DNA from: a virus
Reading direction: 5' to 3' (one strand)
Length of the DNA: 10,601 nt
IMG/VR virus record: IMGVR_UViG_3300027376_000018
The position numbers were made by a program, and so were the translations under genes. Shown piece by piece: positions 3,547 through 4,142 of the stretch. Position 1 is the stretch's first letter, and each line of letters starts with the position of its first letter. Below the pieces are notes generated by a model that saw only the letters and a program-made list of their open reading frames with translations, ran no database searches and was not told the DNA's origin.

Positions 3547-4074
3547 TTAGGCGTTATCGTCGTCGTCCATCAGGATGGGCGTGCGTGCGACCGGAGCGGA
3601 TGCGGCGGCGGCACGAGCGAGAGAGGGCACCGTGCCCCAGTAGGCACGATTCGGAGGAAGGTAGAGGCCCCACTCGGTGTCGAAGTAGCAATTGTCGGGA
3701 GCGAGAGCGAACATCGGAGCCACGTCCTCACTCTTCCATCCCGCGAGGCCGCAGCCGATAGCAGTGACTTGGAATGTGAGTTCCGGGTGCTTCACCGCGT
3801 AGAGCAGGAAGCAGTCGATGTAATAGCGAAGGGCGTCAACCGAGATTTCGTGTCCGGGCTGGCCGGTCGGTTTCGAACAGGTGGGAATCGCGAAGCTGTT
3901 GCCTTGATGACCGAAGCCGATGTTCATCACCGCTCCGTGCTTTACATGTGCCGCCTTCGCTGCTCCACCACCGTGGATGCCACGCTCGTTGCTGCCGAAC
4001 ACGAACACGGGAGGGTTGCTTGGGTCAGAAAAGATGTCAATAAGTCTGATTTGGGGTGCGTTTAAATCGGTCAT
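3547..4074 (-). CDS. macro-domain-like (ADP-ribose binding or hydrolase) protein, 175 aa
   Basis: FVFGSNERGIHGGGAAKAAHVKHG aligns to the macro motif VNAANxxLxxGGGVxxAIxxAAG. Later VTAIGCGLAGWK aligns to AFPAISTGxYGYP. Length is typical of a macro domain. Strong SD GAGGAG, and it is the first gene after promoter copy 2. Confidence 0.5.
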   Translation of the reverse strand: MTDLNAPQIRLIDIFSDPSNPPVFVFGSNERGIHGGGAAKAAHVKHGAVMNIGFGHQGNSFAIPTCSKPTGQPGHEISVDALRYYIDCFLLYAVKHPELTFQVTAIGCGLAGWKSEDVAPMFALAPDNCYFDTEWGLYLPPNRAYWGTVPSLARAAAASAPVARTPILMDDDDNA

Positions 4075-4086
4075 GATTTCTCCTCA

Positions 4087-4142
4087 GAGTTAGTATACCG
4101 GAGCCGCCAGCTTTTCGGCAGGTATTCTACAAATTTTTCTCG
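4087..4142 (-). promoter_or_regulatory. copy 2 of the conserved promoter-like motif (sense GAGAAAAATTTGTAG..TGCCGAAAAGCTGGCGGCTCCGGTATACTAACTCTGAGGAGAAATC-ATG)
   Basis: Same architecture as copies 1 and 3. The A-tract contains the stop codon of the 79-aa gene. TATACT lies 17 nt before the macro-gene ATG, with an SD in between. Confidence 0.55.

Follow-up and report, generated by a model that had tools for sequence, protein, structure and literature searches.

What is the role of the short gene located between positions 3547 and 4142 of the viral record IMGVR_UViG_3300027376_000018? The whole stretch of DNA analysed here, 10,601 nucleotides long and referred to below as the window, lies within a 34-kb metagenome scaffold, of which ~25 kb were read. 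In an initial annotation made from the sequence alone, the 175-aa product of this gene was likened by eye to macro domains and taken as a candidate for ADP-ribosylation reversal or for the evasion of host defences. The available data show, on a predicted structure, that the protein adopts a macro fold and, by profile comparisons, that the class nearest to its family is DarG/TARG1/AdfM. By its sequence, the protein is a clear member of the catalogued A1S_2505 family, which is functionally unassigned. The removal of ADP-ribose from host-imposed adducts is thereby brought forward as a candidate function.

Family membership and fold

Within 3547-4142 lie the macro-like gene, a promoter-like element upstream of it and the final codons of the gene before it. 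The 175-aa reading frame and its Shine-Dalgarno motif GAGGAG, as initially annotated, are confirmed by the open reading frame (ORF), its translation and direct reading of the sequence. The gene is considered real because the 175-aa protein retrieves 1,632 homologues at E<=1e-3 from a 90%-clustered protein database and because a family profile search retrieves 5,206 clusters at 50% identity, 3,843 of them at E<=1e-10. The closest homologues beyond its own cluster are 74-76% identical and likewise begin with MTDL or MSDV. A 255-aa ORF (3298..4065) read from the other strand shadows the macro-like gene in antisense.

The protein matches the NCBIfam model NF049995, "A1S_2505 family phage non-structural protein", over profile positions 1-109/109 (E 1.8e-39; 134.4 bits for a cutoff of 45), as well as phrog_2072, to which no function is assigned (E 3.7e-42). 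Most A1S_2505 homologues start at (I/V)FVFGSN and end at YWG, which delimits a core of ~125 aa. The macro nature of the family is informally noticed by some annotators, a few depositors having labelled members 'ADP-ribosylglycohydrolase' or 'macro domain Pao1p', and it fits a published comparative-genomic framework. Two papers mention A1S_2505 in the context of small RNA and zinc biology of Acinetobacter baumannii and are silent on function. No match was obtained with the NCBIfam DarG model (NF048014) even at E<=10, in a PADLOC scan, or by megablast of the whole window against phage genomes.

An AlphaFold2 model was built from an 84-sequence alignment. Its mean predicted local distance difference test (pLDDT) value is 86, with values >90 over residues 21-140. 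When this model was compared with the PDB using Foldseek, the top 49 matches were all macro scaffolds, with template modelling (TM) scores of 0.45-0.58, and the three-layer alpha/beta/alpha macro fold was recovered on structure comparison. A search of BFVD returned the protein's own family first, then phage and RNA-virus macro domains. The contrary outcome envisaged in the initial annotation, a LOG/SLOG or other Rossmann-like fold, did not materialise: no LOG, SLOG or TIR structure was found among the structure-search matches.

Which macro class is the closest was addressed with hhalign. The family alignment was compared with a five-sequence alignment (A2) of human TARG1, the DarG proteins of Mycobacterium tuberculosis, Thermus aquaticus and Thermosipho, and PhiKZ AdfM; the TARG1 and M. 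tuberculosis DarG sequences match PDB entries exactly, and the PhiKZ AdfM sequence was taken from PMC13309987. A probability of 83.5% (E 8e-6) was obtained, rising to 87.9% (E 3e-6, 99 columns) with a more diverse family alignment. Against a MacroD-type/viral set made of YmdB, SARS-CoV-2 Mac1, Af1521 and CHIKV, all four sequences being provisional, the probability was only 0.8-6%, with the same two motifs paired. Hence, both motif matches first made by eye are reproduced by profile-profile alignment, whereas the MacroD/NAAN class, initially proposed as the nearest comparison, gives way to DarG/TARG1 (88% versus 0.8% hhalign probability).

In the profile-profile alignments, FVFGSNERGIHGGGAA pairs with LVNTVNCVGVMGKGIA of DarG and with VVNAANPSLMGGGGVD of the MacroD type, and VTAIGCGLAGW pairs with VPPLGVGNGGL of DarG and MPRIGCGLDRL of TARG1. 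The first of these glycine-rich loops corresponds to macro loop 1, which is phosphate-binding. Asn29, which ends the first core strand and aligns with DarG N22 and AdfM N23, is found in 267/267 aligned family sequences, a sample biased toward the relatives of the query. In the same alignment, H34, G37, A39 and A42 are essentially invariant and G107, C108, G109, A111 and G112 are near-invariant; across the family, N29, H34, G37, T65, G107 and G109 are invariant or nearly so. In AdfM, the N23A mutation reduces activity (PMC13309987).

Flanking the ordered core, 22 aa at the N-terminus and 27 aa at the C-terminus have low model confidence and are unconserved. The N-terminal sequence 'IDIFSD' was considered as the first macro strand with its Asp, and was dropped, since the extension is unconserved even within the subclade and of low confidence in the model. 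The conserved C-terminal YWG strand (residues 144-147) might replace the missing N-terminal strand. The C-terminal 27 codons (3547..3627) encode an Ala-rich linker leading to the acidic tail MDDDDNA, of low confidence in the model and unconserved among homologues. It is conceivable that this tail acts as a nucleic-acid mimic or serves for docking on a partner.

Lysine and cysteine at position 66

The residue aligned with the catalytic lysine of DarG (K80) and TARG1 (K84) is Cys66 in the macro-like protein. Among the 267 aligned family sequences, position 66 is occupied by K in 160 cases and by C in 91, followed by V (6), R (5) and M (3). The Cys-type sequences share the motif IPTC[SA][KR]PTG[EQ]PG with a 4-residue insertion. 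In a neighbour-joining tree, the Cys types fall in one clade of 89 leaves (85 C, 4 V), and the root state is inferred to be K. The Cys types thus form a near-monophyletic, jumbo-phage subclade, in which the lysine was probably replaced once by a strictly conserved cysteine. That this cysteine is kept among sequences just 50-78% identical argues for a function rather than for decay. All the NADAR- or SLOG-fused members that were checked carry Lys at this position.

The behaviour of AdfM proteins is informative in this respect. T4 AdfM (Tk.4; phage T4 tk.4, L001 4923-5390) scores 97.5% against the DarG/TARG1 profile and has Gln (LYTQ) at the position of DarG K80. Since T4 AdfM is reported, on genetic evidence, to counter DarTG2 and is thus active in vivo, loss of the lysine does not exclude a DarG-like function, and the catalytic lysine is not universal among functional phage DarG-like macro proteins. 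Orthology of the macro-like protein to T4 AdfM was also considered and was rejected, the hhalign probability of Tk.4 against the A1S_2505 alignment being 0.5%.

From the sequences, the Cys subclade may use another chemistry or act on another substrate than the Lys-bearing members, which make up most of the family. A bolder idea, to which we give only a small chance, is that the subclade would represent a new macro-fold enzyme, either a thiol-based ADP-ribosyl hydrolase or a covalent substrate trap, or else a sponge for an unknown immune signal derived from nicotinamide adenine dinucleotide (NAD), the family as a whole being a major anti-defence class. In any case, the split between Lys and Cys types amounts to a natural experiment that bears on how catalysis proceeds or which substrate is chosen. 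Papers of 2025-2026 have already established the idea of phage macro domains as anti-defence factors; the Lys-to-Cys subclade is the new point.

Proposed function and alternatives

The distribution of the family gives a first indication of function. By tblastn, 320 phage records contain it. Most of these are N4-like podoviruses of 72-77 kb, whose hosts are Pseudomonas, Klebsiella, Escherichia, Achromobacter, Erwinia and Rhizobium; some are jumbo phages. In Klebsiella phage KP8 and Erwinia phage Fifi287, the gene is located in the left-end early region, between annotated early promoters and the RNA polymerase subunit genes, and is adjoined by a DUF2493/SLOG gene and a DUF4326 gene. A published Migulavirinae 'anti-signalling hotspot' was also considered and set aside; it concerns other genes, at ~41 kb, and not the A1S_2505 family.

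Domain fusions are a second indication. Among 60 long family members, Pfam detects fusions to YAcAr/SLOG (5), NADAR (4), DUF4326 (3), DprA-like (2) and Acb2/Tad1 hairpin (1) domains, and also to DUF488-N3; the architectures include NADAR-core-DUF488N3, core-NADAR, NADAR-core and core-SLOG. NADAR is the enzyme class of DarG1 and AdfN. In BFVD, an A1S_2505-like domain (~22-32% identity) is found inside crAss-like and other polyvalent proteins of >1,100 aa (A0A7M1RZQ7, A0A7M1RUN7, A0A6J5QNL6), which carry ART-PolyVal (ART, ADP-ribosyltransferase) or helicase annotations, one of them with two copies of the domain. A Macro-NADAR-SLOG-DUF4326 network of phage conflicts centred on NAD and ADP-ribose (ADPr) is described in the comparative-genomic study of Iyer, Burroughs, Anantharaman and Aravind (2022; PMC9503650). 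Moreover, stand-alone phage macro proteins, the AdfM proteins of PhiKZ (gp104) and T4 (Tk.4), are a proven counter-defence against DarTG2 (PMC13309987; bioRxiv 10.1101/2025.11.20.689424). The anti-defence inference is strengthened by these fusions together with the AdfM precedents.

The explanation that best accounts for the data, and which we hold at about even chances, is that the gene, part of an early or accessory array in a large lytic phage, encodes a stand-alone, shortened A1S_2505 macro-fold protein that would remove ADP-ribose from host-imposed adducts, most likely from DarT-modified phage DNA. The ADP-ribose moiety would be bound in a cleft made of Asn29, the H34-G-G-G-A-A loop, Thr65-Cys66 and the G107-C-G-L-A-G loop. 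Then, the protein would strip ADP-ribose from the adduct, the likeliest substrate being DarT-type ADP-ribosylated phage DNA, as for phage AdfM and the DarG2 macrodomains, and ADP-ribose-based immunity would be neutralised early in infection. The gene's own promoter-like element and its strong Shine-Dalgarno motif also speak for this explanation. DarT-type ADP-ribosylated DNA is rated the single most likely target because DarG ranks first among the neighbours by structure and by profile, because the family shares the P-T-K motif, and because of the NADAR fusions and the AdfM precedent.

It should, however, be noted that several observations weigh against this explanation. As to the fold, the Foldseek E-values are weak, ~3e-3. 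The protein is not a member of Pfam Macro (PF01661), the match reaching 12.7 bits for a gathering threshold of 22 (E 0.12, residues 69-121 only). Sequence searches of the PDB, with either the protein or the family profile as query, returned noise only: the top rows were a TIM-barrel hydrolase and a transketolase (E ~0.1-0.5), and a macro match appeared at E 1.1. The family core begins after an N-terminal segment that is present in DarG and TARG1, and in the model no strand is formed in residues 1-22 (pLDDT <60), a 22-aa extension that is unconserved. As to the active site, beside the replacement of the catalytic lysine by Cys66, Ala111 stands at the position of TARG1 Asp125 (DarG has Gly there, likewise no acid). 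As to the context, scanning of the neighbouring genes with PHROGs, Pfam and NCBIfam revealed no DarT, ART or ADP-ribose-related partner, and no recognisable NADAR, SLOG or DUF4326 neighbour is present in this contig. The SLOG, DUF4326 and Acb2/Tad1 fusions point at least equally to small NAD-derived molecules. Finally, no experimental data, biochemical or genetic, were found in the literature for any member of the A1S_2505 family.

The SLOG, DUF4326 and Acb2/Tad1 fusions lead to the alternative that comes closest, possible on the sequence evidence though less probable, namely that the macro fold degrades or sequesters small NAD-derived signals or toxins (His-ADPR, gcADPR, ADPr-1''-phosphate or ADPr>P), in an anti-Thoeris- or anti-RES-like manner. 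These associations favour such a role, and the Lys-to-Cys change may do so too, in that it could mark a binder instead of a hydrolase. However, the closest structural and profile relatives (DarG, TARG1, AdfM) are de-ADP-ribosylases of DNA and protein, and the NADAR fusion partners of phages act on ADP-ribosylated DNA (PMC11825919).

A further alternative is a housekeeping role in nucleic-acid repair of the phage. Acting beside the ligases and the histidine phosphatase of the array, the protein would be a Poa1p-type ADP-ribose-1''-phosphate phosphatase that disposes of what RNA repair or 2'-phosphotransfer leaves behind. We consider this improbable. Neither a Tpt1/KptA 2'-phosphotransferase nor a cyclic phosphodiesterase was detected in the part of the contig that was read; the shared gene order reflects related genomes, not a demonstrated functional link; N4-like phages carry the family gene without RNA ligase neighbours, and the profile is nearer to DarG/TARG1. 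An equally slim chance is given to a partnership with the phage's own ADP-ribosyltransferase, the protein erasing or limiting ADP-ribosylation placed by the phage on host or phage proteins and thereby tuning host takeover instead of countering defence. This proposal draws on a crAss-like polyvalent protein in which the family domain and an ART domain occur together, on a family match overlapping an annotated ADP-ribosyltransferase gene in Rhodobacter phage RcGingersnap, and on a frequent viral ART family that N4-like phages are reported to carry (PMC9503650); yet no ART is recognisable in the 25 kb read, and most family members are stand-alone. Lastly, a non-macro fold (LOG/SLOG or another Rossmann-like nucleotide-binding fold), with motif matches due to coincidental Gly-rich loops, would agree with the sub-threshold Pfam Macro score, the noise of the PDB sequence searches and the weak Foldseek E-values, but it is very improbable in view of the exclusively macro composition of the top structural matches.

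If the de-ADP-ribosylation of host-imposed adducts is retained, its interest reaches beyond this locus. AdfM has a counterpart against DarTG1, the NADAR protein AdfN. Compared with AdfM and AdfN, the A1S_2505 family is much larger and has diverged much further; it is missed by Pfam Macro and is labelled just 'phage non-structural protein'. Its carriers include jumbo phages and the N4-like phages in clinical use, where the gene belongs to the early region. Assignment to the DarG/TARG1-like class provides a concrete hypothesis for thousands of phage genes. For the window itself, the result is a sound annotation and a good, but unsurprising, anti-defence candidate.

Promoter-like element, neighbourhood and known systems

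The initial annotation placed the gene close to a promoter, and this view is borne out by a conserved element (Table 1). The window holds three exact copies of CCGGTATACTA, for 0.04 expected, all on the minus strand. The element extends over ~45 nt, reaching ~35 nt upstream of its core, and every copy is intergenic and on the coding strand. The core contains TATACT as a -10-like hexamer; in the copy ahead of the macro-like gene, the distal half runs into the end of the preceding gene, whose stop codon (4127-4129) leaves a 52-nt gap before the macro-like gene. In a related contig (L004), the element is found upstream of the same three orthologous genes, the macro-like orthologue being 74% identical. 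A sigma-70 consensus scan made no call at the element. The macro-like gene is the first after the promoter-like site and is followed by genes of 118, 64, 140, 123 and 135 aa (the last a TPR protein) until the next copy. Transcription of the macro-like gene from this phage promoter-like element of its own is taken jointly with the explanation preferred above and is, like it, a balanced proposition.

Table 1. Features of the macro-like gene and of the promoter-like elements in the window.
Feature	Position	Strand	Description
Promoter-like element	4086..4135	minus	consensus ~AAAATTTCC.AAAATACTGGCTAAAAT.GTGG...CCGGTATACTA; core 4091-4101
CCGGTATACTA copy	1604-1614	minus	upstream of ATP-dependent DNA ligase gene
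CCGGTATACTA copy	4091-4101	minus	upstream of macro-like gene
CCGGTATACTA copy	6657-6667	minus	upstream of 195-aa gene
Shine-Dalgarno GAGGAG	4080..4085	minus	ATG 5 nt downstream; read from sequence
A1S_2505-family macro-like coding sequence	3547..4074	minus	175 aa, MTDLNAPQ...MDDDDNA; ORF and translation
Ordered core of macro-like protein	residues ~23-148		pLDDT of the AlphaFold2 model and homologue alignment
VFVFGSNERGI, first core strand	3976..4008	minus	residues 23-33; aligns with DarG N22 and PhiKZ AdfM N23
HGGGAAKAA, Gly-rich loop (macro loop 1)	3949..3975	minus	residues 34-42; aligns with DarG MGKGIA and MacroD GGGGV
FAIPTCSKPT	3865..3894	minus	residues 61-70; Thr65-Cys66 align with DarG Thr79-Lys80 and TARG1 Thr83-Lys84
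VTAIGCGLAGW, second Gly-rich loop (macro loop 2)	3736..3768	minus	residues 103-113; hhalign

The other two copies of the element bear on gene starts. The mechanical ORFs 798..1694 and 6052..6678 (minus strand) begin at TTG codons (1694 and 6678) and run through the promoter-like element. The gene calls of the source contig use instead ATG 1598 for the DNA ligase (266 aa) and ATG 6639 for the 195-aa protein.

The ~25 kb read form a single-strand array of ~55 mostly small genes. Among these are rIIA-like and rIIB genes, Ku, an R2K ATP-grasp, an 875-aa vault-like protein, the macro-like gene, the TPR protein, the ATP-dependent DNA ligase, His_Phos_1 and an RNA ligase, the genes for His_Phos_1 and the RNA ligase being downstream of the window. 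By its gene content, the array looks like an early or accessory region such as large lytic phages have. The phage early-region context that had been assumed for the gene is supported by rIIA/rIIB, Ku and the many small same-strand genes, and by the position of the family among annotated early promoters in N4-like phages. Relatives of the subclade are found in similar arrays on contigs of 19, 102, 458 and 465 kb; in all of these the DNA ligase gene follows a few kb downstream, and NUDIX, R2K and weak NMN-transporter (NMN, nicotinamide mononucleotide) matches are nearby. The data suggest a large lytic phage, T4-like or jumbo, that encodes end-joining and ligation functions of its own.

Several neighbours deserve mention in their own right. 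Upstream on the same scaffold (L007 1-5634), an 812-aa gene, probably rIIA-like, directly precedes rIIB (Pfam Phage_T4_rIIB), which is followed by a Ku homologue and an R2K_3 ATP-grasp. The vault-like protein (window 9469..10601, minus strand, running past the window end; L002 1979-4606, 875 aa) matches MVP_shoulder with E 6.5e-23 and has a Vault_3 repeat; an 851-aa orthologue is placed likewise in L011, a phage-like contig of 102 kb. It is unusual for a phage to encode a vault-like protein. In the promoter-delimited unit of the macro-like gene, the 140-aa protein (2536..2958, minus strand) matches two phage families of unknown function, phrog_11912 (E 2e-51) and phrog_17232 (E 2e-34). Two further Cys/His-rich proteins are probably zinc-binding, as judged from their residues: a 220-aa protein (7228..7890, minus strand), with a phrog_24688 match over CLCGH...CKYCH, and a 90-aa protein (4563..4835), with a weak likeness to YheV-type zinc ribbons.

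How does the macro-like protein compare with known systems? Within the A1S_2505 family, it shares all the family-invariant residues (G27, N29, G32, H34, G37, A42, T65, G107, G109, N128 and W135) and differs by belonging to the derived Cys subclade, by the 4-residue PTG.PG insertion and by its unconserved N- and C-terminal extensions. Its identity to the DarG2 macrodomain (M. tuberculosis, 5M3I; T. aquaticus, 5M3E) and to human TARG1/OARD1 is just ~14-17%. Unlike DarG2, it has no DarT-binding C-terminal domain and no adjacent DarT; these DarTG-system features are absent from what is a 175-aa single-domain protein. The fusions and neighbourhoods of the A1S_2505 family are exactly as described for the 'Macro' entries of the network of Iyer et al. 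in the passages covered of that paper (PMC9503650), in which the family itself is unnamed; the gene of the window differs in being stand-alone. With regard to AdfM, the AdfM proteins are ordinary DarG-like macros, detected by the NCBIfam DarG model (E 5e-40 and 2.5e-7), and their anti-DarT2 activity is demonstrated, whereas such an activity of the A1S_2505 family is proposed by analogy. Nevertheless, the likeness to AdfM is extensive: both are stand-alone phage macro-fold proteins of ~150 aa, encoded in non-structural or early regions, with a conserved Asn (N23 in AdfM), and T4 AdfM also dispenses with the lysine.

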